Source: Anaeromyxobacteraceae bacterium
GTDB taxonomy: Bacteria; Myxococcota; Myxococcia; Myxococcales; Anaeromyxobacteraceae
Direction: 5' to 3'
NCBI GenBank assembly: GCA_035656915.1
Contig: DASRRJ010000018.1
Coordinates: 49,816 to 113,815 of the forward strand
Length of the DNA: 64,000 nucleotides
Positions 3,165 through 59,195 of this stretch are shown here, piece after piece. The notes beneath the pieces were generated by a model that was given only the letters and a program-made list of their open reading frames with translations, did no database searches and was not told where the DNA came from. The position numbers and the translations under genes were made by a program. The first letter of the stretch is position 1, and every line of letters starts with the position of its first letter.

Positions 3165-3208
3165 TGTCGCACGACTCCGGGCGGCCGCCCATCCGTGAAG
3201 TGGCGCCG

Positions 3209-4198: not shown

Positions 4199-4230
4199 CG
4201 CGCAGTGACATAGCCGCTCCGGGGCGGCGG

Positions 4231-4380: not shown

Positions 4381-4421
4381 CGGCCATGAGGACCGCGCCG
4401 CGCCCCGGCGAAGCCGCTGCG

Positions 4422-4724: not shown

Positions 4725-4743
4725 GATGCGTCTCCTTGCGAGG

Positions 4744-6741
4744 CTACTCCGCGCCCGCGGCGAGGGCCGTGGGCGCGGTGAACTGCGGGTGCGCGCGGAT
4801 GAGCTCCAGCGCGTCGGCGGAGGCGTCCGCCGGGAACGGGGAGGAGGAGCGGGCGAGCCGGGCCAGCCAGCGCGCGTCGAGCGGCCGCACCAGATCGTCG
4901 CGCGACGTCGCCGCGGCGGTGGTCTCGGCCTTGGGCCCCGAGGCGTCGCCCGCGCCCACGAAGAACCCGGCCAGGAGGAGCGCGCTCCGCACCGCGGTGG
5001 CGGTGCTGTAGGTGAAGAGGGTCGCGCCGGGCGCGCAGCGCAGGCGGACCGCGCGGAACGCGGCGGCTGTCCAGAGCGCCGGGTTCTGCTTGGGAGAGAA
5101 GGGATCCCAGAAGACGAGATCGGCCCGCGCCGGCTCGCGCGCCAGCGCCTCGAGGGCGTCGCCCTCTACCAGCCTCCAGCCGGCGGCCGCCTCCTGGTGG
5201 CGTCCGGTGGCGAGGATCGCCCGGGCCGCGGCGAGGTCCTCGCCGGAGAGGCCGAGCCGGGCGGCGCCCTCGTCGGAGGTCGCGAGCGAGAGCGCGCCAA
5301 GGTCGCGCTCGAAGCTCACCAGCTCCAGCCGGCGCGCGCCGGGCGGCGCCGCGCGGGCGGCGCGCAAGGCGGCGAGGGCGTTCGAGGCGGCCCCGAGCCC
5401 CACGTCGAAGAGCACCAGGGGAGCGCCGCGCTCCGTGAGGCGGGCCGCGAGGCGCGACTGGGCCACGTAGAGCTGCTCCGACTCGGCGGTGGGGCCGATG
5501 ACCGGGTGCATCACCTCGCCCACCACCCGGTCGCGAACCGCGGCCGCGCCCTCGCTCGTCTGCACGATCTCGAAGCGGTCCGGCGGCGGCGGCACCGGGA
5601 CTCCCGGCTGGCGCCCCTCGGGGTCGTGCTCGTGCCGGTCGATGGCCGCGAGCGTCTCCCGGGCGAAGCGCTCGTAGCGCCCCTCCTCGATGGCGGCGCG
5701 GATGCCGCGCATCAGCTCGAGGTAGTGGTGCAGGTTGTGGACGGCGAGCAGCCGCGGCCCGAGCGGCTCCTTGCACTTCATGAGGTGGTGCAGGTAGCCG
5801 CGCGGGTGGGCGCGGCAGGTGGGACAGGCGCAGACGGGGTCGAGCGGCTCCTGCGAGAGCCGGTGATCGCCGCGGGTGAGCCGCACCCGGCCGGTGGAGG
5901 TGAAGGCGGTGCCCTGCCACGCCATGACGGTGGGGATGACGCAGTCGAACATGTCCACGCCGTGCGCGACCATCTCCAGGATGTCGGGCGGGGTGCCCAC
6001 GCCCATCAGGTAGCGCGGCCGGTCCTCCGGGAGCAGCTCCGCCGCGCGGGCCACCACCTCCGAACGTTGGGCGCGGGTGTCGCCGACGGCGAGCCCCCCG
6101 ATGGCGAAGCCATCGAAGGGGTGCTGGGTGAGGAAGCGCGCCGACTCGGTCCGGAGCTCGGGCGAGAGGCCGCCCTGGACGATGGCGAAGAGGGCCTGCT
6201 CCGGGTCCTGCCGCGCGGCGAGGCTGCGCAGCGCCCAGCGGTGGGTGCGCTCCATCGCCTCGCGGATGGCGCTCGGCTCGGCGGTGGAGGGGAGGCAGAT
6301 GTCGAGCACCATCATCACGTCGGAGCCGAGCGCGGTCTGCACCTCGATCGACCGCTCCGGGGAGAGGTGGTGGTAGCGGCAGTCGACGTAGCTCTTGAAG
6401 CGCGCCCCCTCCTCGGTGATGGTCCGGTCCTTCGCGAGCGAGAAGATCTGGAAGCCGCCCGAGTCGGTGAGGATGGGCCGGTCCCAGCCCATGAAGCGGT
6501 GCAGGCCACCGAAGTGGCGCATCGCCTCTGGACCGGGCCGCAGCAGCAGGTGGTAGGTGTTGCCGAGGACGATCTCGGCGCCGAGGCCGCGCAGGTCCTC
6601 GGGCGTGAGGCCGGTGACGGTGGCGCGGGTCCCGACCGGCATGAAGGCCGGGGTCTCCACCCGCCCGTGGGGGGTGGTGAAGGCGCCGCGCCGCGCGCGG
6701 GTCCCCACGTCGCGGGGGCCTGGGTGGAAGCGGAAAGGCAT
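4744..6741 (-). CDS. tgt: Queuine tRNA-ribosyltransferase (Tgt) fused in-frame to an MnmC-like (DUF752) SAM methyltransferase domain
   Basis: The ORF was trimmed to Met140 (ATG at 6741; MPFRFHPGPRDVGTRARRGAFTTPHGRVETPAFMPVGT...). It has the Tgt motifs LTDSGGFQIF, AIVQGGL and the C-terminal Zn site CxCxxC...H. There is no stop before a roughly 280-aa C-terminal extension with DLVFWDPFSPKQNPALWT, which is typical of the MnmC N-terminal methyltransferase domain. 665 aa in total. Confidence 0.75.
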   Translation of the reverse strand: MPFRFHPGPRDVGTRARRGAFTTPHGRVETPAFMPVGTRATVTGLTPEDLRGLGAEIVLGNTYHLLLRPGPEAMRHFGGLHRFMGWDRPILTDSGGFQIFSLAKDRTITEEGARFKSYVDCRYHHLSPERSIEVQTALGSDVMMVLDICLPSTAEPSAIREAMERTHRWALRSLAARQDPEQALFAIVQGGLSPELRTESARFLTQHPFDGFAIGGLAVGDTRAQRSEVVARAAELLPEDRPRYLMGVGTPPDILEMVAHGVDMFDCVIPTVMAWQGTAFTSTGRVRLTRGDHRLSQEPLDPVCACPTCRAHPRGYLHHLMKCKEPLGPRLLAVHNLHHYLELMRGIRAAIEEGRYERFARETLAAIDRHEHDPEGRQPGVPVPPPPDRFEIVQTSEGAAAVRDRVVGEVMHPVIGPTAESEQLYVAQSRLAARLTERGAPLVLFDVGLGAASNALAALRAARAAPPGARRLELVSFERDLGALSLATSDEGAARLGLSGEDLAAARAILATGRHQEAAAGWRLVEGDALEALAREPARADLVFWDPFSPKQNPALWTAAAFRAVRLRCAPGATLFTYSTATAVRSALLLAGFFVGAGDASGPKAETTAAATSRDDLVRPLDARWLARLARSSSPFPADASADALELIRAHPQFTAPTALAAGAE

Positions 6742-42594: not shown

Positions 42595-43497
42595 ATGAGA
42601 GGGCGTGGCGGGTTCCTGCTGGCGGCGTCGGCGGCGCTGGCGATGGGCTGCGGCCTCATGCCGCCGGAGAAGCCCGGGACGACCCAGCAGTCGACGCCGA
42701 CGCCTCCGCCGGTGCCCGGGCCCACCCAGACGCCGTCGCCCGCTCCGTCCTCGGGGCTGCCGTCCCCGCTGCCCGGCTACCACCTGCTCTGGCACGACGA
42801 GTTCGACGGCGCGGGCCTCGACCCGACGAAGTGGACCGCCTCGACCGGCCCTCGACGCGACGCGACGCTCACCACCGACGCGATCTCGGTCCACGACGGG
42901 CTGCTCACCGTCACCACCTACACCGACGGCGGGAAGCACTACACCGGCTTCCTCACCACCGGCAGCGCCTTCCAGCCGACCTTCGGGTACTTCGAGGCGC
43001 GGATCCGCTTCAACGACGCGCCCGGGGAGTGGTGCGCCTTCTGGCTCCTCTCGCCGACGAACGGGGTCCCGCTCGGAGATCCGGCCACGGCGGGCGCCGA
43101 GGTGGACATCGTCGAGCACCGTGTCACCGACCCGAAGGGCTGGGACGCGCTGCGCGACCTCGTCAAGGAGGAGGTGCACTGGGACGGGTACGGCGCCGAC
43201 CGGAAGGACTCGCCGGAGCACACCGTCCCGCTCGCCGGCGGCGGTCCCGTGCAAGGCGCCTGGCACACCTACTCGGTGCTCTGGACGGACGCGGGCTACT
43301 GGTTCTACGCGGACGGATCGCTGCTCTGGAACTACGACCAGGGGCTCTCGAAGCGGGGCGAGCAGGTGCTGCTCACCTGCGAGGTCGAGGACGGCACCTG
43401 GGCGGGCTACGTCCCGGCCGGCGGCTACGGCTCGCTGGCCAGCAGCGCCACCCACATGGACGTGGACTGGGTGCGGGTCTGGGCGCCGGGGCCGTAG
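42595..43497 (+). CDS. Glycoside hydrolase family 16 lipoprotein (endo-beta-1,3/1,3-1,4-glucanase-like)
   Basis: GGGGAGGGG SD. The signal peptide has a lipobox (LAMGCG) and a Pro/Thr-rich linker. The catalytic GH16 motif EVDIVEH (ExDxxE) and a jelly-roll-type sequence are present. Confidence 0.8.
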   Translation: MRGRGGFLLAASAALAMGCGLMPPEKPGTTQQSTPTPPPVPGPTQTPSPAPSSGLPSPLPGYHLLWHDEFDGAGLDPTKWTASTGPRRDATLTTDAISVHDGLLTVTTYTDGGKHYTGFLTTGSAFQPTFGYFEARIRFNDAPGEWCAFWLLSPTNGVPLGDPATAGAEVDIVEHRVTDPKGWDALRDLVKEEVHWDGYGADRKDSPEHTVPLAGGGPVQGAWHTYSVLWTDAGYWFYADGSLLWNYDQGLSKRGEQVLLTCEVEDGTWAGYVPAGGYGSLASSATHMDVDWVRVWAPGP

Positions 43498-46360
43498 TCC
43501 TCGGAGCCGGCCGCCTACTCCTCCGGCGCGCCAGCGCCGCGGCCGCGAGGAGCCCTGCCAGCGAGAGCGCGTCCCCTCCACCGCTCGAGGCGCAGCCCCC
43601 CCGACCGCCGGCAGCGGCGGAGGCCGGCGTGGGCGATCCTCCAGCCGTCGAGGGCGCGGTGGCCCCCCGGATGACGCCCGAGAGCATGAAGTCGCGCGAC
43701 GAGCTCCCCACGAACACCGGGGTCTCGCACGCCGGCGATGTCCAGGCGTGCGCCGCCGGGTCCCAGCGCTCGAACGCCTCCGGCGCCAGCGCGACGGTCA
43801 CGCGCCGGCTGGCGCCCGGATCGAGCGCCACCTTGGAGAACCCCGCCAGCCGGTGCGGCACCGGGTCGGCCTCCCCGGGGCAGGGTCCCACGTAGACCTG
43901 CGCCACCTCGGCGCCAGCGCGGCCGCCGGTGTTGGCGAGCGTGAACGAGACCTGGGCCGTGCGGCGGCCGGCGGCGTCCACCGTCGCCGGCGCGACCTCG
44001 AGGCCGGAGTAGCCGAAGGTGGTGTAGGAGAGGCCGTAGCCGAAGGGGAAGAGCGGCGCGATCCCCTTCGCGTCGTACCAGCGGTATCCCATGAGCAGCC
44101 CCTCCGACCAGGCGATCACCGGGCCGATCTGGTCCTGGGTGGGCGCGGGCTGCGCGCCGACCGGCGTCTGGTCGAGCGAGCGCGGGAAGGTGAGCGGGAG
44201 CTTGCCCGAGGGGTTCACGTCGCCGAAGAGCACCCGGGCGACGACGTCCCCCTGCCGCTGCCCCGGGTACCAGGCCTGCACCACCGCCGAGACGGCGGGG
44301 AGCCAGGGCATGCTGGTGCCCTGACCGGTGGTGAGCACCACGACCGTGCGCGGGTTGGCCGCCGCCACCGCGGCGATGAGCGCGTCCTGCTCGGACGGGA
44401 GCGAGAGGTCCAGCCGGTCGCGCTCCTCGGTCCCGTAATCCCGCGCGACCACCACCGCCACGTCAGAGGCGGCCGCCAGCGCCACCGCCTCGCGCGTGGT
44501 GGAGAGCACCGTGCCGGCCGGCATCTGCCACCCCAGCTTCAGATCCCCGCCGCGATCGGTCGCCACCCCGATGCTGGGGGCGTCGGCGACGTAGTCCACC
44601 CGAAGGTCGTGCTTCGTGCCGGCGGCGAGCTGCACGGTGGCGGACCTGGAGTCGAGCTCGTGCGAGCCGGAGTGGTCGATGACGAGCGCGCCGTCGAGCC
44701 ACACCCAGCCCTGGCCGCGGTCGGTGAGCGTGAAGGTGTAGGTGCCGGTCGCCGGCGCGGTGAGGGTGCCGTTCCAGCGGGCCGAGATCTTCTGCAGGGC
44801 GAAGCTCTCCGGGAGCTGCGGCTCGGAGGAGGCGTCGACGCTCGGGTAGTCGAAGAAGCCGAGCGAGACCGCCGCCTCGTGGTCCACCCGGATCACCTCC
44901 GCCGGGCCGGCGAAGCTCGGGTTGAGCCAGTACTGCGCCCGCAGGCCGCGGGTCCCGTCGTCGAACCCCTCCGGCGTGAGCACCGAGGAGGGGATGGCCG
45001 GCGGTCCCGGCAGGAGGTGCGCCGGCGAGACCGGGTCGCCACCGGGCGCGAACCTCACGTCCACCCCGGGTCCGGCGCGCTGGCGCAGGCCGTCGAGCGG
45101 AGTCACCGAGGAGGTCGGCTCCACCCGCGCCGCGCCGCCGCCCTGGGCCGCGGCGGTGTCGGCGTCGGCGCCGATGACCGCGATCGAGCGCAGCGCGCCG
45201 GCGGAGAGCGGGAGGAGCCCGTCGCGGTTCTGGAGCAGCACCACCCCCTGCTCGGCGATTTGCTCCGAGCGGTCGGAGTCGTCCGCCTCGGCGAGCGGCC
45301 CCGGTTGCACCGGCTGGTCCATGAGGCCGAGGCGGAACATGGAGCGCAGGATCCGGCGCGCCTTGTCGTCCACCACGTCGCGCGCCACCTCCCCGCGCTG
45401 GACCGCGCCGAGGAGCGAGTGGCCGAAATACTTCTCGAAGGCCAGCTCCTGGTCGAGGCCGGCCGTGGCCGCCAGCACCGTGCCGTGGATCGAGGCCCAG
45501 TCGCTGAGGACGTAGCCCTGGAAGCCCAGCTCGCCCTTGAGGACGTCGGTGAGGAGGTGGCGGTCCTCGCAGGCGAACGCGCCGTTCACGCGGTTGAAGC
45601 CGCACATCACGCTCCCCACCTGGGCGTCGGCGACCGCCGCCTGGTAGGGCCGGAGGTAGAGCTCTCGCAGGGCGCGCTCGTCCAGCTCGGCGTCCACCGT
45701 GAAGCGGTCGGTCTCCTGGCCGTAGGCGACGTAGTGCTTGGCGTCGGCGATCACCGGGTGCTTCTGGATGGCCTGGATGAACGGGGCGGCGAGGCGCGCC
45801 GCCAGGAGCGGGTCCTCGCCGAAGCCCTCGAAGGTGCGGCCGGCGAGCGGGTCGCGCGCGAGGTCCAGGGTGGGCCCGAGCAGCACGTTGTGCCCGGTGA
45901 GGAAGGCCTCGGCACCGAGCACGTCCCCCTGCTCGGAGGCCGCGGTGGGGTCGAAGCTCGCGGCGAGCGCGATGGGCGCGGGGAGCTGGGTGGCCCGACC
46001 GCCGTTCACCCGCTGGTAGGGGATGCGGATGCCCGCCGGGCCGTCGGTCATGGTCAGGGCCGGGATGCCGAGCCGGGCGATGGGGGCGTTGTAGTAGCCG
46101 TAGAGCAGGCAGCGCTCGCCCGTCGCGAGATCGATCTCCTCCTCGAGCGCCATGGCCCCGAGCAGCGCCTCGGCGCGCGCATCCGGCGGCTGGCTGGAGT
46201 CGGTCCAGGGCCGGCTCGCGGGCGGCCCCTGCTCCGAGCCGAGCGTCGGGCCAGGGCAGTACGGCGGTGGCGCGGCGCCGGCGTGGAGCGCGACCGAGGC
46301 GATCACTGCCGCGAGCAGCGCGAGCGCCCCTCGGTCTGCCTGAAACCCGGCGTGGAGCAT
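43373..46360 (-). CDS. Glycoside hydrolase family 3 beta-glucosidase with inserted PA14 domain and MYXO-CTERM-like C-terminal sorting region
   Basis: The ORF was trimmed to Met91 (signal peptide MLHAGFQADRGALALLAAVIASVALHA). The GH3 nucleophile motif GFQGYVLSDWASIHG is present. The PA14 region reads YWLNPSFAGPAEV...TGTYTFTLTDRGQGWVWLDGALVIDHSG. The C-terminal ...GGCASSGGGDALSLAGLLAAAALARRRSRRP resembles MYXO-CTERM. The ORF runs roughly 43 aa beyond it and overlaps the GH16 3' end by 125 nt. Confidence 0.8.
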   Translation of the reverse strand: MLHAGFQADRGALALLAAVIASVALHAGAAPPPYCPGPTLGSEQGPPASRPWTDSSQPPDARAEALLGAMALEEEIDLATGERCLLYGYYNAPIARLGIPALTMTDGPAGIRIPYQRVNGGRATQLPAPIALAASFDPTAASEQGDVLGAEAFLTGHNVLLGPTLDLARDPLAGRTFEGFGEDPLLAARLAAPFIQAIQKHPVIADAKHYVAYGQETDRFTVDAELDERALRELYLRPYQAAVADAQVGSVMCGFNRVNGAFACEDRHLLTDVLKGELGFQGYVLSDWASIHGTVLAATAGLDQELAFEKYFGHSLLGAVQRGEVARDVVDDKARRILRSMFRLGLMDQPVQPGPLAEADDSDRSEQIAEQGVVLLQNRDGLLPLSAGALRSIAVIGADADTAAAQGGGAARVEPTSSVTPLDGLRQRAGPGVDVRFAPGGDPVSPAHLLPGPPAIPSSVLTPEGFDDGTRGLRAQYWLNPSFAGPAEVIRVDHEAAVSLGFFDYPSVDASSEPQLPESFALQKISARWNGTLTAPATGTYTFTLTDRGQGWVWLDGALVIDHSGSHELDSRSATVQLAAGTKHDLRVDYVADAPSIGVATDRGGDLKLGWQMPAGTVLSTTREAVALAAASDVAVVVARDYGTEERDRLDLSLPSEQDALIAAVAAANPRTVVVLTTGQGTSMPWLPAVSAVVQAWYPGQRQGDVVARVLFGDVNPSGKLPLTFPRSLDQTPVGAQPAPTQDQIGPVIAWSEGLLMGYRWYDAKGIAPLFPFGYGLSYTTFGYSGLEVAPATVDAAGRRTAQVSFTLANTGGRAGAEVAQVYVGPCPGEADPVPHRLAGFSKVALDPGASRRVTVALAPEAFERWDPAAHAWTSPACETPVFVGSSSRDFMLSGVIRGATAPSTAGGSPTPASAAAGGRGGCASSGGGDALSLAGLLAAAALARRRSRRPAPRTTAPAPRPAPSPRPCGWRCWPASRSRRPGRSPPRCRPRPRR

Positions 46361-46584
46361 CCGATGGCCGTGCGCCGTGCGGCGACCCCCCTGCGAGCAA
46401 GGGTAGGGCGAGAGGGACGGCAGGCAACGAGCGGGCGGCCGCCGCTCGAGCCCGCGCCCGATGGCCGCGCCGCGACCACGCGCAGGCTCGCGCGCACGAG
46501 AGAGCCCGTCCGGGCGTGGTGCTCGCTCGGCCCGGTGGCTTAAATGGCGGAGATCTTGGAGCGCGGCTGGATCTGGAGGCAAGC

Positions 46585-47604
46585 ATGGCCGACACCATGA
46601 AGGCGTACGAGGTTCCGAAGCCCGGCTCACCCTTCACCCTGGTCGAGCGGCCGGTGCCTCGACCGGCCCCGGCCCAGGTGCGCATCGCCGTCGAGGCCTG
46701 CGGCATCTGCCACTCGGACGCGTACGTGAAGGGTGGGCAGTTCCCCGGGCTGACCCTCCCGCGCGTGCCGGGGCACGAGGTGGTCGGCCGCGTCGACGCG
46801 GTGGGGGACGGCGTGACCACCTGGCGGGTCGGGCAGCGCGTCGGGGTGGGCTGGCACGGCGGCCACTGCTTCGTCTGCGAGGCTTGTCGCGCCGGCGACT
46901 TCATCGAGTGCGCGCGCGGCCTCATCTGCGGCTTCAGCTACGACGGCGGCTACGCCGAGTACCTGATCGCTCCCCAGGAGGCGCTCGCCGCGGTCCCCGA
47001 CGCGCTCGACGCGGTGGCCGCCGCGCCGCTGCTCTGTGCCGGGGTCACCACCTTCAACGCGCTGCGCAACAGCGGCGCGCGCGGCGGCGAGCTGGTGGCG
47101 GTCCAGGGCATCGGAGGGCTCGGGCACCTCGGCATCCAGTACGCCCGCAAGCTCGGCTTCCACACCGTGGCGATCTCGCGCGGCGCCGACAAGCGCGCCC
47201 TGGCCCTCGAGCTCGGCGCGCACGAGTACGTCGACCAGGAGGCCGGCGACGCAGCGGCGGCGCTGCAGAAGCTCGGCGGAGCCCGCGCGATCCTCGCCAC
47301 CGCGCCCAACTCGCAGCTGATGTCGAAGCTGGTGGACGGGCTCGGCCGCAACGGCACGCTGCTCGTTGTGGGGGCGTCGCCGGATCCGATCCAGGTCTCG
47401 CCCTTCCAGCTCATCGGCCCGCGCCGGCGGCTGCAGGGGTGGCCGAGCGGCACGGCCAAGGACTCCGAGGAGGCGCTCGCCTTCAGCGCGCTCAACGGGG
47501 TGGCGTCGCGGAACGAGGTCTTCCCCCTGGAGCGCTGCAACGAGGCCTTCGAGCGGATGACGAGCAACAAGGCGCGCTTCCGGGTGGTGCTGAAGGTGCG
47601 CTGA
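46585..47604 (+). CDS. Zinc-dependent alcohol dehydrogenase (MDR superfamily)
   Basis: GGAGG SD. It has the catalytic Zn (GICHSD...GHE) and structural Zn (C..C..C...C: CFVCEACRAGDFIEC) motifs and a Rossmann GIGGLGH motif. Confidence 0.9.
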   Translation: MADTMKAYEVPKPGSPFTLVERPVPRPAPAQVRIAVEACGICHSDAYVKGGQFPGLTLPRVPGHEVVGRVDAVGDGVTTWRVGQRVGVGWHGGHCFVCEACRAGDFIECARGLICGFSYDGGYAEYLIAPQEALAAVPDALDAVAAAPLLCAGVTTFNALRNSGARGGELVAVQGIGGLGHLGIQYARKLGFHTVAISRGADKRALALELGAHEYVDQEAGDAAAALQKLGGARAILATAPNSQLMSKLVDGLGRNGTLLVVGASPDPIQVSPFQLIGPRRRLQGWPSGTAKDSEEALAFSALNGVASRNEVFPLERCNEAFERMTSNKARFRVVLKVR

Positions 47605-47616: not shown

Positions 47617-47874
47617 TCAGCCGCCGCTCAGCGCCTGCACGAGCTGCACCTCGTCGCCGAAGCGCAGCGGCCGGGAGAGGTCGAAGACCTGCTCGCCGTT
47701 GACGAAGCAGCGGATGTGCGGCCGCAGCCGCTCCTGCTCGTCGATCACGCGGAAGCGGAAGCCGGGGTAATGACGCTCGAGGTCGAGGAACGCCGCGGCC
47801 AGCGTCTCGCCGCGGGCCTCCACCTCCCGCGCCCCGGTGTAGGAGCGCAGCGGGCTCGGGATCAGCACCTTCAT
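47617..47874 (-). CDS. MoaD/ThiS-family ubiquitin-like sulfur-carrier protein (C-terminal GG)
   Basis: 85 aa ending ...LVQALSGG. It has a beta-grasp-like pattern. Its start overlaps the upstream stop as ATGA. Confidence 0.7.
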   Translation of the reverse strand: MKVLIPSPLRSYTGAREVEARGETLAAAFLDLERHYPGFRFRVIDEQERLRPHIRCFVNGEQVFDLSRPLRFGDEVQLVQALSGG

Positions 47875-49082
47875 GCGATACCGTCCAGCTCGGCCGCCTC
47901 CACGGCGTAGATCTCGGGGAGGTGGCGCGCCAGACAGGTCCAGCGCGCGCCCTCGTCGCGGCTCCCCCAGAGCTCTCCGCTCGTCGTCCCGAGGTAGAGG
48001 CCGACCGGGTCGCGCAGATCGCCCGCCATCGCCTGGCGCTTCACCGTCCACCACGCCTGCTCCTGCGGCAGCCCGGCGTCGAGCCGCCGCCAGGTCCTGC
48101 CGCCGTTCCGGGTGACGTAGGCGGCGGCCTTGCCCCCGGGGCTGGTGCGCGGCCAGACGCTGGTGCCGTCCATCGGGAACACCCAGGCGGTGTCGGGATC
48201 GCGCGGGTGGACCACCAGGGGGAAGCCGATGTCGCCGACCCTCTTCGGCAGGCTCCTGCCCACCCGGATCCACTCGCTCGACGGGCGGTCGAGGCGGTAG
48301 GTGCCGCAGTGGTTCTGCTGATAGAGCCGGTCGGGGTTGGCGGGGCAGAGGCGGATGCAGTGCGGGTCGTGGAACGCCGGGTTGGAGACGTCGAACCCCT
48401 CCACCACCTCCAGCCCCGCGAGGAGCGGCGCCCAGGTCTCGCCGCGATCGAGCGACTCGTGCACGCCGCCGCTCGACATGCCGACGTAGAGGTGGGCCGG
48501 GTCGCGCGGGTCGACCAGGATCGAGTGCAGCTTCGGGCCGTCGGGCGTCCCGTCCTGCGGGCCTCCCATCCAGGCCCGGTAGCGGGGGTGGTCGTTCAGC
48601 CCGGAGACCGGCTCCCAGCTGGCGCCGCCGTCGCTCGAGCGGAAGAGCCCGTGCGGCGAGGTGCCGGCGTACCAGACCCGTGGCTCGGTCGCGTGGCCGG
48701 GCGTGAGCCAGAAGGTGTGGTCGACGACGCGGCCCTTCTCGCCCTCAGGCGCCCTGGGGAAGGCGGGAGGCCGCAGGGCCTCCTTCCAGGTCCGCCCGAG
48801 GTCGGTGGAGCGGAAGATCGTGGGGCCGAGGTGCCCGGTCTTCGCCGACGCCAGCAAGGTCCGCCCGTCGCGCGGGTCGAGGACCAGGTGGTTGATGACC
48901 TGGCCCAGGAAGTGGGGCCCGTCGACCTGCCAGCGGCGCCGGGCCGCGTCGCCGCGGTAGACCCAGGCGCCCTTGCGCGTGGCGACGAGCAGGAGCAGAG
49001 GCGGCGTGGGCCGCCGCCGCCTCGAGCGCGGGGGCGTGGCGGGTCGCGGCCTCCGTGCCGTCGTCTTTCGGGTGGTCGCCAT
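47871..49082 (-). CDS. BNR/Asp-box repeat (sialidase-like beta-propeller) protein
   Basis: Five SxDxGxTW BNR repeats are present: STDLGRTW, SDGGASW, SLDRGETW, TRNGGRTW and SRDEGARW. The N-terminus is Arg-rich (possible Tat-like) and the exact start is uncertain. Confidence 0.75.
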   Translation of the reverse strand: MATTRKTTARRPRPATPPRSRRRRPTPPLLLLVATRKGAWVYRGDAARRRWQVDGPHFLGQVINHLVLDPRDGRTLLASAKTGHLGPTIFRSTDLGRTWKEALRPPAFPRAPEGEKGRVVDHTFWLTPGHATEPRVWYAGTSPHGLFRSSDGGASWEPVSGLNDHPRYRAWMGGPQDGTPDGPKLHSILVDPRDPAHLYVGMSSGGVHESLDRGETWAPLLAGLEVVEGFDVSNPAFHDPHCIRLCPANPDRLYQQNHCGTYRLDRPSSEWIRVGRSLPKRVGDIGFPLVVHPRDPDTAWVFPMDGTSVWPRTSPGGKAAAYVTRNGGRTWRRLDAGLPQEQAWWTVKRQAMAGDLRDPVGLYLGTTSGELWGSRDEGARWTCLARHLPEIYAVEAAELDGIA

Positions 49083-52078: not shown

Positions 52079-52432
52079 ATGCCCCTCAAGATCGCCCTGC
52101 TGATCGCGCTCGCCCTCTCGGCCTGTAACCCCAACAACTGCGATCCGGGCTGCACCGGAAGCAACGGGAGCTGCGAGAGCTGCCCTTCTCCCTACTCCTG
52201 CAACAGCGGCGGGATCTGCAGCAGCGTCGTCAACGGCGTCGCCTGCTGCACCGGAGGCAGCGGCGGCGGCGGTGGTGGTGGCGGCGGGAGCTGCAACGCC
52301 GGGTACTGCGTCTCGAACGGCGCCTGCTGCCCGGCGGGCTCGCCGTACTACTGCCGAGGCTCCTGCTACGTCACGTACAACGACCTGCTCCATGCCGGCT
52401 GCACCACCGCGGTGCAGGGGACCTGTTACTGA
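52079..52432 (+). CDS. Small secreted Cys-rich lipoprotein (22 Cys in 117 aa) with poly-Gly linker
   Basis: The ORF was trimmed to Met25 (MPLKIALLIALALSAC, lipobox LSAC). GC3 is very high. Cys spacing is repeated (C..C...C, CC, C....CC). The central linker is G12S. No SD is obvious. Confidence 0.55.
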   Translation: MPLKIALLIALALSACNPNNCDPGCTGSNGSCESCPSPYSCNSGGICSSVVNGVACCTGGSGGGGGGGGGSCNAGYCVSNGACCPAGSPYYCRGSCYVTYNDLLHAGCTTAVQGTCY

Positions 52433-52553: not shown

Positions 52554-54263
52554 GTGAGCGTGCGCTACCACGCGCTCGCCACGGACTACGACGGCACGCT
52601 GGCGACTGCCGCGCGGGTCGGCGCGGAGACCGTCGCAGCCCTGACCCGGCTGCGCGCCTCCGGTCGCCGCCTCGTGCTCGTGACCGGCCGCATCTTCTCC
52701 GACCTGGCGCAGGTCTTTCCCGAGCACGCGCTGTTCGACGTCGTCGTCGCCGAGAACGGCGGGGTCTCCTGCCGGCCTGGCGCGGCCGAGCGCCTCCTGG
52801 CCGAGGCGCCTTCGCCTGCGCTGGCGAAGGCCCTGCGGGCGCGCGGCGTCCCGTTCGATCAGGGGCGGGTCGTCATCGCCACCCGCGAGCCGCACGACGT
52901 GACGGTGCTGGAGGTCATCCGGGAGCTCGGCCTCGAGCTCGACGTGATCTTCAACAAGGGCGCGGTGATGGTGCTGCCCTCCGGCGTGAACAAGCGCACC
53001 GGGCTCGAGGCCGCCCTGGCGGAGCTTGGGCTCACGGCGCACGAGGTGGTGGCCCTCGGGGACGCCGAGAACGACCACACACTCCTGGCGGGCGCGGAGC
53101 TGGGCGTGGCGGTGGAGAACGCGCTGCCCGCGCTGAAGGAGCGCGCCGACCTGGTCACCCGCGGCGCCAGCGGCGCGGGCGTCGAGGAGGTGATCGCAGG
53201 GTTGTTGGCCGACGACCTCGCCGGCCTGGATCCGCCCCGCCACCGCGTGGCCCTGGGCGAAGGCGCCGCGGGCGCGCTCTCCGTCTCGCCCGCCGGCACG
53301 AGGCTGCTGGTCGCCGGCACCTCCGGCAGCGGCAAGAGCACGTTCGCGAGCGGCGTGCTGGAGAAGCTCGTGGAGAAGGGGTACCAGGTCTGCCTGGTGG
53401 ACCCGGAGGGCGACTTCGAGGGCTTCCAGGGCCTGACGCCGCTCGGCTCCGCGGAGCGGACCCCCTCGGTCGAGGAGGTGGTGGCGCTGCTCGCGGAGCC
53501 GGGCATCAGCCCGGCGGTGAGCCTGCTGGGGCTGCCGCTGCGCGACCGCCCGCGCTTCCTGACCGAGCTCTGGCCCAAGCTGCAGCAGCTCCGCGCCAGG
53601 TCCGGGCGCCCGCACTGGCTGGTGGTGGACGAGGCGCACCACATGTTCCCGCGCGCGTTCGACTCGAGCGCCGCGCTGCCCCGCGACCCGGGCGGCCTGC
53701 TGCTCGTCACAGTCCACCCCGACCGGCTCGAGCCCGAGGTGCTGCGGACGGTGAACGCCGCGGTGGCGGTGGGGGAGGGCGCGGCGGCGACGCTCTCCGC
53801 CTTCTTTCGCTCTGCCGGGCTGCCCGGAGGCGGCCCCGCGGAGACGCAAGCGCCCGAGCAGGCGCTCCTGTGGACCGCCCGTTCCGGCGAGACCGTCGCC
53901 TTCCGCCCTGCCCAGCCTCGCGCGGCGCACCAGCGCCACCGGCGGAAGTACGCCTCCGGCGACGTGCACGAGAAGGCGTTCCGGTTCCGGGGGCCAGACG
54001 GCCGCCTCGACCTGCGGGCGCAGAACCTCGAGCTCTTTCTCCAGCTCGCAGACGGGGTGGACGACGAGACCTGGCGCTTCCACCTCGAGAACGGGGACTA
54101 CTCGCGCTGGTTCCGTGAGGCCATCAAGGACGAGGAGCTGGCGCGCGACGCCGCGGAGGTGGAGCGCTCGGCCGGCGGCGACCCACGGGACACCCGCAAG
54201 CGCCTGCGCGAGGCGGTGGAGCGGCGCTACGTCGTGGAGGACGCGGGGGCGGTCGCGCGCTGA
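52554..54263 (+). CDS. Fusion protein: HAD-IIB (Cof/SPP-like) phosphatase domain + HerA/DUF87-like P-loop ATPase domain
   Basis: The GTG start has GGAGAAGGTGAG upstream. The HAD motifs are I LATDYDGTLA, II LVLVTGR and IV GDAENDHTLL. After about 270 aa come Walker A (VAGTSGSGKST), a VDPEGDFEGF box and Walker B (HWLVVDEAHHMF), reminiscent of HerA/FtsK/DUF87 ATPases. Confidence 0.7.
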   Translation: MSVRYHALATDYDGTLATAARVGAETVAALTRLRASGRRLVLVTGRIFSDLAQVFPEHALFDVVVAENGGVSCRPGAAERLLAEAPSPALAKALRARGVPFDQGRVVIATREPHDVTVLEVIRELGLELDVIFNKGAVMVLPSGVNKRTGLEAALAELGLTAHEVVALGDAENDHTLLAGAELGVAVENALPALKERADLVTRGASGAGVEEVIAGLLADDLAGLDPPRHRVALGEGAAGALSVSPAGTRLLVAGTSGSGKSTFASGVLEKLVEKGYQVCLVDPEGDFEGFQGLTPLGSAERTPSVEEVVALLAEPGISPAVSLLGLPLRDRPRFLTELWPKLQQLRARSGRPHWLVVDEAHHMFPRAFDSSAALPRDPGGLLLVTVHPDRLEPEVLRTVNAAVAVGEGAAATLSAFFRSAGLPGGGPAETQAPEQALLWTARSGETVAFRPAQPRAAHQRHRRKYASGDVHEKAFRFRGPDGRLDLRAQNLELFLQLADGVDDETWRFHLENGDYSRWFREAIKDEELARDAAEVERSAGGDPRDTRKRLREAVERRYVVEDAGAVAR

Positions 54264-54332: not shown

Positions 54333-54614
54333 TCAGCTGGCGTGCGGCTGCCGGGTCTCGCGGGACGAGACCTCCCGCAGCGTCCTCCCCGCCGCCGCCT
54401 CCTCCTCCAGATCGGCGACGTCGGAGAGGCTGATCACGCCGGCCAGCTTGCCGTCCTGGTCGCAGACCATGATGCGGGACTTGCGGTGGTCCCGCATCAA
54501 CCGCTCCGCGTCCTCGATCGAGTCGCCGGCGCCAGCACGCGGATCGCCAGGTCGCGATCGTTCAAGGTGCCCACCGGCTTGCCGGGGGAGGACATGGAGC
54601 ACGCGTTCACTCAC
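54333..54614 (-). pseudogene. CBS-domain protein remnant (single C-terminal CBS motif; likely truncated)
   Basis: Only one CBS motif is present (MRDHRKSRIMVCDQDGKLAGVISLSDV), preceded by a non-protein-like N-terminus. It is squeezed between the anti-sigma gene end and the HAD-ATPase gene. Confidence 0.35.
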
Positions 54615-54656: not shown

Positions 54657-55757
54657 TCAGGGGGACGACGCCCGGCAGGTCACCGCGGGAGCGCCGCTCT
54701 CGACGCCCGACACGCTGCAGGCGAGTGAGCCCACGGCTCGCTGGAACGTGAAGCGCAGCACGCCGTCGCTCCACCGGAGGTCGCGGAGGTCATCGCCCGC
54801 GGAGGCCTCGACGAGCGCGTCGCCGCCCCGCAGCTCGTCGGCGCGCCAGGACGCGACCACTCCCGGATCGTCGCCCGCGCGCAGCTTCTCGATGACCAGG
54901 ACGAGGCCCGAGTCGGCTCGTTCCTTTCGCGCCCGGTAGAGGAACCCGGCGGCGGTGAAGGAGGCGGTCTCCGGGAGGTTCGCGCCCGCGCGGGGGCCGC
55001 TGCGCGAGGTCGTGTCCTCGGCGCTCGCCCTCGCCTTGGCGGCGCCACGCACGCGGGTCGGGGCGGCATTGCTGCGCTGAGCGTCAACCAGCGGCATCGC
55101 TGGGAGGGCCGCGGCGGCGGAGGGTCCGGCGGATGCTTCGCGCCTGGCCTCCGGGGCTGCGGCCGACGAGGAGGGCGCCGCCATCGCCGTGGGAGGTTCG
55201 GCGGCCGCGGTCGCGCGCGGAGGCTCGACCGCGGGCGCGAGCGGGCGTGGCGGTCTTGCTCGCGGGGCCGGCGCTGCGGGCGCGGTCTGGAGGGCCGGCG
55301 GCGCCTCCGGCAGGTCCGGAGACGACGCTGGAGCGGGCGCCGCCGACTCAGAGCGCGGCTCCAGGGCGGGCGCGGCCGCGCGCGAAACCGCTGCGCTCTC
55401 CTCATCGCTGGCGCGGTGAGCCCCCGGTCGCGTGAGCTGGAGCGTCACGCCGAAGGCGACCAGGGCCACGGCCGCCGCGGCTCCAAACGAGAGCGTCGCC
55501 GGGCGTGCAAACCAGCGCCGCTCCGGGCGCGCCCGCACCGCGCGACGCGCCGCTTCCACGAGCTGGTCGCGGTTGCTCCGGGGCGGAGCGCTCTCGCGGA
55601 GCGCGGAGGCGAGCGCGCGGGTGGAGGTGAGGCGCTGCAGCTGCGGGCCGCAGGTGGCGCACTCCCCGGCGTGGCGCGCGACCTCGGCCGCGGTCGCCGG
55701 CTCGAGCTCGCGGTAGGCCAGGTCCAGCAGCAGTTCTTGCGCCTGCTCGTGCGTCAT
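54657..55757 (-). CDS. Zinc-finger (ZAS, HxxxCxxC) anti-sigma factor with TM helix, Pro/Ala-rich linker and C-terminal periplasmic domain
   Basis: The ORF was trimmed to an ATG (MTHEQAQELLLDLAYRELEPATAAEVARHAGECATCGP) that overlaps the sigma stop as ATGA. It has one TM segment (LSFGAAAAVALVAFGVTLQL). The enclosing 1182-aa ORF N-terminus is antisense junk. Confidence 0.75.
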   Translation of the reverse strand: MTHEQAQELLLDLAYRELEPATAAEVARHAGECATCGPQLQRLTSTRALASALRESAPPRSNRDQLVEAARRAVRARPERRWFARPATLSFGAAAAVALVAFGVTLQLTRPGAHRASDEESAAVSRAAAPALEPRSESAAPAPASSPDLPEAPPALQTAPAAPAPRARPPRPLAPAVEPPRATAAAEPPTAMAAPSSSAAAPEARREASAGPSAAAALPAMPLVDAQRSNAAPTRVRGAAKARASAEDTTSRSGPRAGANLPETASFTAAGFLYRARKERADSGLVLVIEKLRAGDDPGVVASWRADELRGGDALVEASAGDDLRDLRWSDGVLRFTFQRAVGSLACSVSGVESGAPAVTCRASSP

Positions 55758-56350
55758 GGCCTCGCGCTCCTGTCGGTCGCCCGGTGGGCGCCGGCCTCCG
55801 GAACCTCTCCCGCGGCGTCGAGCGCCCTGCGCAGGGCCTCGAGCGCGTACCGCATCCGGCTCTTCACCGTCGGCAGGAGCGCGGCGGTGACCTCCGCCAC
55901 CTCCGCGAACGATAGCCCCTCGTACTCGCGCAGGAGGAATACCTCCCGCTGATCCTCGGGCAGCGCCGCGATGGCGCGCTCGAGCGCCGCGCGAAGGAGG
56001 ACGTCGCCCTCCGGTGCGCCCGCGGCCGGCTCCTTGCCGTCCCGACCCGCCGTGCGCTCCAGCGGCTCGTGATCCCGGTGCGCCGTGCGCCGGGCCGCGT
56101 CGGTCGCCAGGTTGCGGGCCACCGCGTACAGCCAGGTCTTGAAGCTCCCGCTCGCCTTCCAGCGCGGAGCCGCGCCGATGAAGCGCATCCAGCAGTCCTG
56201 CGCGAGGTCGTCGGCCCGGGCGGCGTCGCCGACGAACCGGCGGAGGAACCGGAAGACGCCCTGGCGGTGGCGGTCGAGGAGCGCCTCGAACGCCGCCACG
56301 TCGCCTCGCTGGTAGCGAGTCACGAGCGCCTCGTCGGTGTCGTCGACCAC
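55754..56350 (-). CDS. ECF-type RNA polymerase sigma factor (start uncertain)
   Basis: Region 2 (LVTRYQRGDVAAFEALLDRHRQGVFRFLRRFVGD...DLAQDCWMRF) and region 4 (LPEDQREVFLLREYEGLSFAEVAEVT) are present. I placed the start at an internal GTG; the longer ORF start at 56554 would overlap the divergent gene. Confidence 0.7.
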   Translation of the reverse strand: MVDDTDEALVTRYQRGDVAAFEALLDRHRQGVFRFLRRFVGDAARADDLAQDCWMRFIGAAPRWKASGSFKTWLYAVARNLATDAARRTAHRDHEPLERTAGRDGKEPAAGAPEGDVLLRAALERAIAALPEDQREVFLLREYEGLSFAEVAEVTAALLPTVKSRMRYALEALRRALDAAGEVPEAGAHRATDRSARP

Positions 56351-56507
56351 GCCTCTCCCCGGCTCTCCGCGCCGTTCCTTCCAGGGTGAACGCAACGAGC
56401 TCGGAAATGGATCTGGCACATCCGAGCCGGGGCCGCCAGGACGGCCTGCGCCAGGCGCGTAGATCCTTCTCAGGCCTGGTGCGTTCCACCGGGCAGGAGG
56501 ATTCACC

Positions 56508-57323
56508 ATGCGCCTCACGGCCGTCGCCGCCTGCCTCGCCGTCTTCGTCGCCACTGCGCCGCTTCACGCTTTCGCGAGGGACCTCGCTCCCGGTCGCTGG
56601 GGGAGCTACTCCGTCGAGCTGCTGGACGAGGCGGGGCGGGTGCTGCCCACCTACGACCACGGGGGGCGCACCTACGTCCTCGGCGCGCTCGGCGGGCGCT
56701 ACATGATCCGGGTGGCGAACGGCTCGCCGCGGCGGCTGGAGGTGGTGGTCTCGGTGGACGGCCGCGACGTCCTCGACGGCCGCCCGGCGGAGTGGGGCAA
56801 GCGCGGCTACCTGGTCGAGCCGCACGGCGCCGTCACCATCGACGGCTACCGCCTGACGCAGGAGGCGGTGGCCGCCTTCCGGTTCTCGAGCGTGCCGCGG
56901 TCGTACGCCGCGCTCGAGGGGAACGCGCGCGACGTCGGCGTCATCGGCGTGGCGGTCTTCCCCGAGCGGGAGGTGGCGCTCGCGCCGCGGCCGGACGCGC
57001 GCGCGCTCCGCTCCGAGGCGGCGCCCGCCGCGCCGGGGATGGCCGGCGCCAAGGCGATGCGCCGCAATGGGCTCGGCACCGAGTTCGGGGAGGAGCGCGC
57101 CTCGCACGTGGAGCAGGTCCCCTTCGAGCGCGCCCGCGCGCGGCCCGACGTGGTCCTCTCGCTGCGCTACGACGACCGGGAAGGGCTGCTGGCGGCCGGC
57201 GTCCCCCTCGAGCCGCGCCGCTGCGGAGAGCAGGCGCTGCGCCACGACGCCGACCCGTTCCGCCGCGATGTCGGCTACGCCGCGCCGCCGCCCGGCTGGC
57301 GCGGGGCGAGCGCGCGGGATTGA
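56508..57323 (+). CDS. Secreted hypothetical protein (signal peptide), divergent from the ECF sigma/anti-sigma pair
   Basis: AGGAGG sits 6 nt upstream. The signal peptide is MRLTAVAACLAVFVATAPLHAFA. GC3 is high. 271 aa. Confidence 0.6.
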   Translation: MRLTAVAACLAVFVATAPLHAFARDLAPGRWGSYSVELLDEAGRVLPTYDHGGRTYVLGALGGRYMIRVANGSPRRLEVVVSVDGRDVLDGRPAEWGKRGYLVEPHGAVTIDGYRLTQEAVAAFRFSSVPRSYAALEGNARDVGVIGVAVFPEREVALAPRPDARALRSEAAPAAPGMAGAKAMRRNGLGTEFGEERASHVEQVPFERARARPDVVLSLRYDDREGLLAAGVPLEPRRCGEQALRHDADPFRRDVGYAAPPPGWRGASARD

Positions 57324-57377
57324 GCGCTGCGGCCCCGGTGCGCCTCCTCTGGTAGCCTGCCATCGGGAGGTCGGGCG

Positions 57378-58061
57378 ATGGACGAAAGGACGCGGCAGCT
57401 CCTCGAGCGCATCCGGAGCTTCGCGATGCCGCAGGGGCCGGTGGAGTGCCGAGGGACCTGGCTTCGACAGGTGGGCGAGATGCGGTTCGCGCCCGACCGC
57501 TCCTGGTTTCCGTTCGAGGCGGAGCAGTGGTTCGAGGGAGACGGCATCGACTTCCGCTGGAAGGCCCGCGCGCGGCTGGCGGCGCTCGTGCGCGCCAGCG
57601 TGGTCGACGCGTTCGAGGCCGGCCGCGGCGCGCTCACCGCACGGCTGTTCGGTGTCATCCCGGTCGCCAGGGCCCGGGGTCCCGCGACGGACCAGGGTGA
57701 GGCGCTCCGCGGCCTCGCGGAGCTTCCCTGGCGGCCATTCGCGTTTCGCGAAGGGCCGGGCATCGCCTTTGAGGCGACCGGCTCGGACAGGCTGCGCGCC
57801 ACCTTCGACGACGGCAGGACCCGCGCGACCGTCGAGTACGAGGTCGACGCCGAGGGCCGGGTGCTCGGGGCCGCGGCCTCGAGCCGGCCGCGCGTCGTCG
57901 GCAAGTCGACCGTGGAGACGCCCTGGGCGGGAGTCTTCCGGGAGTACCGTACGTTCGATCGCCTCCGGGTGCCGACCGAGGCGGAGGTGTCCTGGCAGCT
58001 GCCCGAGGGTGCCTTCACGTACTGGCGAGGGCGGGTCGTGGAGTTGAGGATCTTGCCGTAG
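57378..58061 (+). CDS. Hypothetical protein
   Basis: GGGAGG SD. 227 aa with high GC3. No family is recognised. Confidence 0.55.
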   Translation: MDERTRQLLERIRSFAMPQGPVECRGTWLRQVGEMRFAPDRSWFPFEAEQWFEGDGIDFRWKARARLAALVRASVVDAFEAGRGALTARLFGVIPVARARGPATDQGEALRGLAELPWRPFAFREGPGIAFEATGSDRLRATFDDGRTRATVEYEVDAEGRVLGAAASSRPRVVGKSTVETPWAGVFREYRTFDRLRVPTEAEVSWQLPEGAFTYWRGRVVELRILP

Positions 58062-58169
58062 CGAAACGCCGGCGCGCCCTTGCACGGCGGAGACGTTCGC
58101 GCGAAGTAGGAGAGCGCGGCGCGCCGTGCCGTGCCGTGTCGACGAAGGGTCCGCCCAGGAGCAACGAGG

Positions 58170-59195
58170 ATGAGAGTCGTCCATTCCGCACTGCACGCTC
58201 GCCACGACGGGGGCAAGGAACTCTACCGCGGTGAGCTGGTGCCGTGCTTCGAGTCGCCGGCGCGGGCCGACCTCATCCTCCGGGCGGTGCAGCGCGCCGG
58301 CTTCGAGGTGAGCGAGCCTCGCGCCCTCTCCGCGGAGGCGCTCCTAGGGGTCCACGACGCGGGGTTCGTCGAGTTCCTGCGGACCGCTCACCGCGAGTGG
58401 CGGGCCACCGGCAGGGGCGGGTTCATGCTGCCGAGCGCGTTCCCCGCGCGCGGCCTGCGCCGCGATCACGCCCCCTCGGGCATCCACGGGCGGATGGGCT
58501 ACTACTGCTTCGACCCCGGGACGCCGATCGTGGAGGGCACCTGGGACGCCGCGCTCGCGTCGGCCGGGTGCGCGCTCACCGCCGCCGCGCTGGTCGCCGA
58601 GGGCGCCACCAGCGCCTACGCCCTGTGCCGGCCCCCCGGGCACCACGCCGGCCGCGCCGTCTACGGCGGCTACTGCTTCCTCAACAACGCCGCGCTGGCG
58701 GCGCAGCGCCTCCGCGACCTGGGCCTCGGCCGGGTGGCGGTGCTCGACGTGGACGCGCACCACGGCAACGGGACCCAGCAGATCTTCTGGGAGCGCGCCG
58801 ACGTGCTCTACGTCTCGATCCACGGCACCCCCGAGACCGAGTACCCGTACTTCCTCGGCTACGCCGACGAGCGCGGGGCCGGGGCAGGGGAGGGCTTCAC
58901 CCGCAACTTCCCCCTGCCGCGGGAGGCGGCCTGGGCGGAGTACGGCCCCACGCTCGACGCGGCGCTCGACGTCGTGGCCCGGTTCACGCCGGCCGCCCTG
59001 GTGGTCTCGCTCGGCGTGGACACCTTCGCCGGTGATCCGATCAGCCCCATCGCGCTCGAGCGCGAGCACTTTCCGCTCATCGGCCAGCGGCTCGCCACGC
59101 TCCGCGTGCCGACGGTGATCGTCCAGGAGGGCGGTTACGCCCTGGAGGACATCGGGGCGAACGTCGTGGGGGTGCTGAGCGGCTTCGAGGGGTGA
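58170..59195 (+). CDS. Histone deacetylase-family protein (acetoin utilization AcuC / acetylpolyamine amidohydrolase-like)
   Basis: The ORF was trimmed to Met14 (GAGG SD). HDAC motifs are present: PPGHHA, DVDAHHGNGTQ and a Gly-rich loop. Confidence 0.85.
   Translation: MRVVHSALHARHDGGKELYRGELVPCFESPARADLILRAVQRAGFEVSEPRALSAEALLGVHDAGFVEFLRTAHREWRATGRGGFMLPSAFPARGLRRDHAPSGIHGRMGYYCFDPGTPIVEGTWDAALASAGCALTAAALVAEGATSAYALCRPPGHHAGRAVYGGYCFLNNAALAAQRLRDLGLGRVAVLDVDAHHGNGTQQIFWERADVLYVSIHGTPETEYPYFLGYADERGAGAGEGFTRNFPLPREAAWAEYGPTLDAALDVVARFTPAALVVSLGVDTFAGDPISPIALEREHFPLIGQRLATLRVPTVIVQEGGYALEDIGANVVGVLSGFEG

Follow-up and report, generated by a model that had tools for sequence, protein, structure and literature searches.

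A HAD-IIB phosphatase fused to a minimal HerA/FtsK-type ATPase and an OrfY/DUF5752-like repeat in a widespread bacterial protein family

What would a small-molecule phosphatase do in the same polypeptide as an ATPase of the HerA/FtsK clade, a group known for the translocation of DNA or protein and, lately, for scaffolds that activate defense effectors? The question is raised by an open reading frame (ORF) at positions 52554..54263 of the forward strand in a 64,000-nucleotide stretch of an Anaeromyxobacteraceae contig (DASRRJ010000018.1), the whole of which is here called the window. A preliminary description regarded this ORF as an unusual fusion of a HAD-IIB sugar-phosphatase-type domain with a HerA/DUF87-like P-loop ATPase and hinted at phage defense or conjugation. 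The analysis presented here shows three domains in one chain, being a HAD-IIB phosphatase, a minimal HerA/FtsK-type ATPase, and a single repeat of the OrfY/DUF5752 type.

The fusion gene is complete, starts with GTG, and encodes 569 residues in a single ORF, which confirms that one intact fusion is present. Its codon-position GC content is 0.79/0.50/0.95 (GC3 0.95), a pattern typical for a genome with 74% GC, and therefore the ORF corresponds to a real gene; the long antisense ORFs that overlap it lack a gene-like pattern of this kind. A 100% identical protein, annotated as "HAD hydrolase family protein", is found in an Anaeromyxobacteraceae metagenome-assembled genome, and the alignments with homologues span 98–99% of the protein length in a single frame. 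This indicates that the HAD and ATPase halves are not joined artificially, and both an assembly artifact and the frameshift contemplated in the preliminary description are ruled out by the single ORF and the full-length alignments. The AlphaFold2 model of the full protein, built on 24 homologues, has a mean pLDDT of 88 and a pTM of 0.77, whereas a second, separate model covers residues 226–569, both being monomers. The invariance of residues in the HAD and ATPase motifs was scored in the alignment of 24 homologues. A Rfam scan of positions 40000–64000 of the window gave no match to an upstream riboswitch or RNA element, and no sigma-70-like promoter or intrinsic terminator is observed at the gene, which is uninformative at 74% GC.

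The HAD-IIB (Cof/SPP-type) domain, with a C2 cap, spans residues 1–220 (52554..53213, +), being shorter than the roughly 270 residues first attributed to it. Motif I is DYDGT (52584..52598, +, residues 11–15), with the nucleophile Asp11 and the general acid/base Asp13; motif II is VTGR (residues 43–46); the motif III region is SGVNKRTG (52980..53003, +, residues 143–150); and motif IV, with the Mg2+-binding acidic residues, is GDAENDH (53058..53078, +, residues 169–175). The key residues of the four motifs (D11/D13/T15, T44, K147, and D170/N173/D174) are all invariant, as is the whole stretch from G169 to H175. Together with the C2-type cap located between motifs II and III and a family model above its cutoff (HAD-IIB TIGR01484 of NCBIfam, 75 bits against 41.8), they place the domain in HAD-IIB, and the motifs make it apparently competent as a phosphatase. 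Pfam assigns the first ~220 residues to Hydrolase_3 (E 1e-25) and to S6PP (40 bits, passing the gathering score). The more specific models are not reached, being 77.8 bits against a cutoff of 107.15 for the SPP-subfamily model TIGR01482, 94.6 against 122.75 (TIGR01487) and 89 against 198 (PRK01158) for the phosphoglycolate phosphatase equivalogs, and 22 against 184 for TIGR01485. Scores for the MPGP models lie far under the cutoff, and Pfam Trehalose_PPase has no match in the protein. Judged by these scores, the domain is the orthologue of no named or characterized phosphatase, every equivalog cutoff being missed. It belongs to the Cof/SPP subgroup, in which the characterized enzymes have sugar phosphates and small phospho-acids as substrates. 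In comparison with the HAD-IIB phosphatases of this subgroup (PH1421/TA0175, sucrose-phosphate phosphatase, Cof-type, and trehalose-6-phosphate phosphatase), the window protein adds an ATPase and a third domain; the solved HAD-IIB relatives that were found, chains of ~160–290 residues, have no such fusion.

The ATPase had been described as occupying the C-terminal ~300 residues. Its core, a minimal ASCE P-loop ATPase of the HerA/FtsK clade, corresponds to residues 226–455 (53229..53918, +), and the separate domain that lies beyond it had been overlooked. The core carries the Walker A motif AGTSGSGKST (53313..53342, +, residues 254–263), with G255, S257, G258, G260, and K261 invariant; the VDPEGDF box after strand 2 that is typical for HerA/VirB4 (53397..53417, +, residues 282–288), with D283 to D287 invariant; and the Walker B motif WLVVDEAHH (53616..53642, +, residues 355–363), with Asp359, the catalytic Glu360, and H363 invariant. 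Thus, the four HAD motifs, Walker A, DPEGDF, and Walker B listed in the preliminary description are all present in the sequence. The invariant R332 and R352 are candidate arginine fingers, and from its invariant motifs the domain is apparently competent as an ATPase. In the middle of the protein, the sole Pfam match is a short one to DUF87/HerA (residues 250–292, E 3.9e-6). A Protein Data Bank (PDB) fold search with the model of residues 226–569 ranks HerA (20.4), DptH (19.3), a HerA-DUF assembly (17.8), VirB4 (17.6), B204 (17.3), and FtsK (15.7) above RecA, RAD51, KaiC, and DnaB, which reach only 10–13, and Foldseek is concordant. Based on this ranking, the domain is a minimal HerA/FtsK-clade ASCE ATPase and not a KaiC/RecA-type kinase, so that the KaiC/RecA-like family considered earlier as an alternative is excluded. 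The RecA-like core, Walker A, the DE pair of Walker B, and the clade-typical fold are those of the HerA/FtsK superfamily.

Nonetheless, with neither a HAS-barrel nor a partner gene, the fusion protein is no orthologue of HerA. The HAS-barrel has no Pfam match, the N-terminal position being held by the HAD domain, and NurA, SIR2, or DUF4297 partners are absent from the Pfam tallies of 153 immediate neighbors (first 25 families per side) and from the fully annotated loci. In comparison with HerA-NurA, SIR2-HerA/Nezha, DUF4297-HerA, and B204, the window protein is without the HAS-barrel, without an assigned helical-bundle insert, and without a nuclease or SIR2 partner gene. Moreover, the position of the effector differs from that in the HerA effector complexes, being here a fused small-molecule phosphatase, and the genomic behavior of the family is housekeeping-like and not defense-like.

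The C-terminal domain (53919..54233, +, residues 456–560; RAQNL, GDYSRWFREAIKD) combines a basic motif, RHRRKYA, with a beta-hairpin and a helical bundle. In the 24-homologue alignment, conservation along the protein is highest in these final ~105 residues, with invariant positions that include R461, H462, R464, Y466, F476, F478, G480, N491, L492, and Q497, as well as D503, T506, W507, H510, D515, W519, K525, D526, R548, and Y559; among 18 sequences, the domain has 29 invariant columns. In isolation it matches Pfam DUF5752 (PF19027) with an E of 0.0013 and 18.6 bits, under the gathering cutoff of 23, and its profile retrieves a single sequence from the PDB, 4cso_A ("OrfY protein, transcription factor"), with an E of 7e-4. 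Since a relative 75% identical to 4cso carries PF19027, OrfY is kin to DUF5752. A comparison by hhalign of the domain with five DUF5752 proteins gives a probability of 91.8% and an E of 7.4e-7 over 90 columns, the motifs RAQNL, (N/G)D(F/Y)xxW, and xD..LA being common to both. The DUF5752 proteins, whose genes were gathered from metagenomes, have two repeats. By these profile comparisons, the C-terminal domain is one OrfY/DUF5752-like repeat, that is, a remote, single-repeat relative of DUF5752, and it differs from OrfY of Thermoproteus tenax (PDB code: 4cso) in having a single repeat where OrfY has two, and in its additional basic motif, RHxRKYA.

The free-standing DUF5752 genes point to the surroundings in which this fold is found. 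In three loci (L086, 4911–6763; L095, 651–2620; and L097, 4857–6826), a DUF5752 gene lies directly upstream of a Pfam-confirmed TreT gene (TreT_GT1 and Glycos_transf_1, a glycosyltransferase of family GT4), in the first two with a 4-bp overlap, and in L095 a GT20 gene is located 0.7 kb beyond the pair. These pairs match the linkage in T. tenax, where OrfY is reportedly a member of the treT operon (Kouril et al. 2008). In a further locus (L096, 4854–6847), a DUF5752 gene overlaps the start of its downstream gene by 4 bp, and a GalT/ADP-glucose-phosphorylase-like gene is also present. No TreT gene is found near the fusion family in 86 loci, nor in the window.

The fusion described as unusual is indeed uncharacterized, but it is common. 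In a large protein database, 7,461 clusters (90% identity) match it at E ≤ 1e-3, and the best 120 of them are 51–66% identical with at least 94% query coverage, all but one being 550–613 residues long. A scan with one genome per species found the confirmed fusion locus in at least 579 species genomes, with identities of 45–66% over more than ten phyla. These comprise Cyanobacteria, Planctomycetota, Acidobacteriota, Chloroflexota, Nitrospirota, Myxococcota, and several proteobacterial classes, and the fusion is also carried by Actinomycetota, Firmicutes, Elusimicrobia, Fibrobacteres, and Melainabacteria. With the C-terminal half as query, HMMER retrieves 364 representatives (50% identity clusters) at E ≤ 1e-30. 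The catalytic motifs of both enzymes are invariant across phyla. The database names are all generic ("HAD-IIB hydrolase", "phosphoglycolate phosphatase"), and a literature search for DUF5752, OrfY, 4CSO, HAD-IIB with HerA, and HAD with DUF87 found nothing about the family. The architecture matches no characterized system that was found, although databases already list the sequence family under these generic names.

Some variants of the architecture are observed. Two proteins (P0123, 855 residues, and P0124, 578 residues) have an extra C-terminal hemerythrin (HHE) domain following the OrfY-like domain. Another one (P0184, 349 residues) has the ATPase and the C-terminal domain without HAD, with a degenerate Walker A (VGSSESAKRS) and Walker B (VIDRAHH), and from these residues it may be an inactivated paralogue. 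Stand-alone versions with only the ATPase and the C-terminal domain were considered, and most of the short matches turned out to be N-terminally truncated fragments that start within the HAD domain; genuine-looking versions without HAD are few (e.g., P0200 and P0184).

The genomic context was analyzed by clustering the ORFs of 86 loci by all-against-all BLAST and by annotating with Pfam 77 upstream and 76 downstream neighbors. A conserved operon was rejected, no family being common to more than 4 loci per side, and an apparent neighbor cluster of 25 loci corresponds to the generic two-component/sigma-54 activator superfamily at variable distance. Thus, the fusion gene is usually stand-alone. 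Where there is local linkage, one recurrent theme is carbohydrate metabolism. A Gemmataceae locus has the order alpha-amylase family, GDE, GlgC, and fusion gene; in two further Gemmatales loci, a debranching-type gene lies 0–16 bp upstream of the fusion gene; an Acidobacteriota locus has the order GT4, GDE_N_bis/MGH1-like (alpha/alpha)6 glycoside hydrolase, and fusion gene; and Caballeronia has a GT4-GT4-fusion gene operon with gaps of 16–19 bp. In Aminobacter, the genes transcribed divergently from the fusion gene encode a trehalose-6-phosphate synthase of family GT20, a glycoside hydrolase, and a GT4. Alpha-amylase-family genes lie within 7 kb of the fusion gene in 8 loci from 5 phyla. A debranching-type/(alpha/alpha)6 hydrolase is the immediate neighbor in 4 of ~95 loci (L015, L028, L084, and L103), against a chance expectation that we roughly estimate at ~0.1, and in L005 it is one gene away.

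Two of these loci merit a description of their own. In L103 (Aminobacter pAA02, 972–6119) and L084 (3588–6886), a small GT4 of ~350–370 residues is paired with a GDE_N_bis/MGH1-like (alpha/alpha)6 hydrolase, and the GT20 trehalose-6-phosphate synthase of L103 is long, with 605 residues. The set formed by GT4 and hydrolase, with GT20 in one case, looks like an uncharacterized compatible-solute gene cluster.

Other neighbors belong to stress physiology. Dps is found directly upstream in three planctomycete loci and also as a neighbor in PCC 7502, and hemerythrin genes are nearby in 5 loci (three scanned loci, Paraburkholderia, and PCC 7502); fused or nearby, hemerythrin suggests an O2, iron, or redox input. 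CBS-domain neighbors are present in the window, Caballeronia, Agrobacterium, and an Acidobacteriota locus, with USP also in Agrobacterium. The neighbors in Pseudanabaena and PCC 7502 are Mn catalase, BON, and TspO; those in Paraburkholderia are cytochrome bd, hmpA, and Mn catalase; and those in Sinorhizobium meliloti are cold-shock genes and rpsU.

From this evidence, the fusion protein would be an ATP-gated or ring-scaffolded sugar-phosphate phosphatase of compatible-solute or glucan metabolism, a tentative reading to which we give a probability of roughly 0.4. The HAD domain would dephosphorylate a sugar phosphate supplied by a GT4/GT20 synthase or by glucan turnover, the likeliest substrates being trehalose-6-phosphate, a sucrose-6-phosphate-like compound, or another disaccharide phosphate, and this step would complete a two-step compatible-solute pathway or lie at a node of glucan mobilization. 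The HerA-like domain would oligomerize into a ring, by analogy with its structural relatives, and act as an ATP-dependent scaffold or switch and not as a DNA motor. The model for such a role is provided by the defense HerA rings that assemble or activate SIR2 or DUF4297 effectors, with the difference that the effector would here be fused; the structures of the SIR2-HerA and DUF4297-HerA assemblies are among the PDB fold-search and Foldseek matches of residues 226–569. The OrfY-like domain would be a contact or sensor module toward a glycosyltransferase, a role proposed from the free-standing DUF5752 genes, which overlap the start of TreT, a GT4 enzyme. The protein as a whole would take part in the physiology of stress or dormancy (osmotic, oxidative, or desiccation).

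A precedent for part of this scheme exists. In T. tenax, a GT20/HAD-IIB fusion (TPSP) is activated by a GT4 protein with which it associates in a complex (PMC3634074), and so synthase/phosphatase assemblies exist in prokaryotes. As in OtsA/OtsB, SPS/SPP, the T. tenax TPSP-GT4 complex, and the yeast TPS complex, the HAD-IIB phosphatase of the fusion family is encoded with GT4 and/or GT20 in several lineages. On the other hand, none of those systems is known or was found with a P-loop ATPase, and, unlike them, the fusion gene is unclustered with a synthase in most genomes.

Several observations weigh against such a sugar-phosphate phosphatase. The scores of the HAD domain stay under the equivalog cutoffs for the trehalose-, sucrose-, and mannosylphosphoglycerate-phosphatases as well as for phosphoglycolate phosphatase, and its nearest solved relative, PH1421, bears the label of the last of these. 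No glycosyltransferase, trehalose, or glycogen gene lies near the ORF, and a search of the whole window for TreT, GT20, and glycogen genes found none. Most loci have no conserved partner, the most frequent families reaching 3/77 upstream and 4/76 downstream, and the strands of the immediate neighbors are distributed ~50/50. In Nostoc, the neighbors are lower-glycolysis genes (GAPDH, PGAM-like, and pyruvate kinase) and not glycosyltransferases. Also, the name "transcription factor" given to OrfY by its PDB depositors points to DNA and not to a glycosyltransferase, and no HerA/FtsK-clade ATPase is known to regulate a metabolic small-molecule enzyme. The mechanism is inferential, and most genomes give it no contextual support.

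Other readings assign a different substrate to the HAD domain or a different role to the ATPase. The protein could be a phosphatase for central-carbon phospho-acids (phosphoglycolate, compounds of the phosphoglycerate or phosphoenolpyruvate type, or glycosyl-3-phosphoglycerate) whose P-loop domain senses the adenylate energy charge, working as a metabolite-repair or overflow valve of lower glycolysis. This agrees with the best matches in NCBIfam and the PDB, which are archaeal models and structures labeled "phosphoglycolate phosphatase", with the Nostoc cluster (2-hydroxyacid dehydrogenase, fusion gene, GAPDH, a PGAM-like His_Phos_1 protein, and pyruvate kinase), with the His_Phos_1 genes nearby in the window and in a Bryobacteraceae locus, and with neighbors such as phosphoenolpyruvate carboxykinase (2), acetate kinase (2–3), and phosphoketolase. 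However, each of these contexts is seen once or twice, the phosphoglycolate-phosphatase cutoffs are missed by the bit scores given above, and neither the OrfY/DUF5752-like domain nor the GT4 operons are explained, and we therefore hold this substrate class to be rather unlikely. The label of the closest HAD structure can also be read in terms of nucleic acids, with a HerA-type translocase whose HAD domain would trim 3'-phosphate or 3'-phosphoglycolate ends, much as polynucleotide kinase-phosphatase does, while the OrfY-like domain would bind DNA, in a repair process of stress or dormancy. By structure, the ATPase is closest to DNA translocases and packaging motors (HerA, FtsK, B204, and TrwB), the RHxRKYA motif of the C-terminal domain is basic and invariant, OrfY was deposited as a transcription factor, and a 3'-5' exonuclease domain (3/77), LigD Prim-Pol, a DEAD helicase, and Dps are occasional neighbors. 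Nonetheless, C2-capped HAD-IIB enzymes act on small molecules, the DNA-end phosphatases belonging to other HAD groups that are capless or differently capped; there is neither a HAS-barrel nor a nuclease partner; the DNA-repair neighbors are rare and do not exceed chance; and the only statistically striking neighbors are carbohydrate enzymes. A function on DNA ends is for these reasons improbable.

That both active sites are invariant and that the gene stands alone, as expected of a self-contained regulator, would also be compatible with a bifunctional enzyme in analogy to PFK-2/FBPase-2, in which the P-loop domain would phosphorylate a signaling metabolite that the HAD domain dephosphorylates. 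Weak P-loop matches to APS kinase and thymidylate kinase models exist, but they cover only ~35 residues around the P-loop, the fold with its Walker B DE pair and DPEGD box is clearly that of the HerA/FtsK clade and not of a nucleotide kinase, and small-molecule kinases are not known in this clade, which makes such an enzyme very unlikely. The remaining proposal takes up the hint of the preliminary description, namely an anti-phage defense or conjugation module in which the HerA-like ring would detect the DNA of an invader and switch on the fused phosphatase, to deplete, for instance, a nucleotide or metabolite. The fold is shared with SIR2-HerA, DUF4297-HerA, DptH, and VirB4, and the best sequence-level match of the ATPase core is mad8 of PADLOC (E 4e-10), which is nonetheless limited to the region from Walker A to Walker B. 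PADLOC gave nothing convincing for ten window neighbors, the sole match being a partial, low-scoring NsnC for the His_Phos_1 protein, and the Pfam families of the neighbors are metabolic or regulatory. No partner gene is conserved in ~95 loci. The C-terminal half (residues 226–569) has no match among 50,697 phage records and matches 12 of 72,556 plasmid records, all of them non-mobilizable replicons from 63 kb to 11.9 Mb, and an identity of 45–66% over more than ten phyla fits vertical, housekeeping-like conservation. The lack of a conserved or mobile context, together with this high cross-phylum identity, argues against a role in defense or conjugation, which we consider extremely improbable, and the hint is not sustained; the family looks like one of stress or sugar metabolism rather than of phage defense. 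Concerning the plasmid records, two entries of PLSDB have the size of chromosomes, CP090106.1 (3.72 Mb, "pSymB"), which carries rpsU, ftsZ, and cold-shock genes, and NZ_LT559118.1 (11.85 Mb). Both are probably mislabeled chromosomes that inflate the apparent plasmid occurrence of the family.

The sugar-phosphate phosphatase reading can be extended to a more elaborate form, in which the fusion protein would be the hub of an unrecognized bacterial compatible-solute synthase complex, with a HerA-type ring, six HAD-IIB domains, and OrfY-like domains docking GT4/GT20, all of it switched by ATP under stress. Binding or hydrolysis of ATP, reporting the energy state (with an O2/redox input in the hemerythrin-fused variants), would turn on synthesis and channeling. 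We regard this hub as doubtful, and a bolder variant, in which the ring would thread phosphorylated alpha-glucan chains past the phosphatase, as scarcely credible.

In the window, the fusion gene is preceded by genes for a carboxylesterase, a thioesterase, an SPFH protein, and a His_Phos_1 phosphatase. What looks like a gap of 588 bp between this last gene and the fusion gene is occupied by a small ORF (52079-52432, +) that encodes a Cys-/Gly-rich putative lipoprotein of 117 residues. The lipoprotein has a signal peptide with the lipobox LSAC, numerous CxxC-like spacings, and nine consecutive Gly, and it gives no match in PADLOC. Converging on the 3' end of the fusion gene are a short CBS-domain ORF (54333-54614, −), a zf-HC2-type anti-sigma factor (−) that starts at about 55760 inside a spurious ORF of 1182 residues (54657..58205), and an ECF sigma factor (55754-56554, −). 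Other genes in the vicinity encode a GH3 glycosidase of 1085 residues in which a PA14 domain is inserted and which ends in an Fn3-like tail (43373-46630, −), a BNR/sortilin-type repeat protein (47871-49082, −), and a protein of the histone-deacetylase family (58131-59195, +).

Finally, a fusion of a HerA-type ATPase with a small-molecule phosphatase that is kept at ~50% identity from cyanobacteria to planctomycetes, acidobacteria, myxobacteria, and rhizobia suggests a widespread, unrecognized regulatory principle in stress or carbon-storage metabolism, with thousands of members that are at present mis- or under-annotated. The orphan DUF5752/OrfY fold gains with it a second context, which should help to explain its role beside TreT. 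If the hub were true, it would be a functional equivalent, in prokaryotes, of the trehalose synthase complex of yeast and the first metabolic, non-nucleic-acid role of a HerA/FtsK-clade ATPase. The family is present in the tractable Sinorhizobium meliloti, Agrobacterium tumefaciens, and Nostoc-type cyanobacteria, and its function is therefore directly testable.

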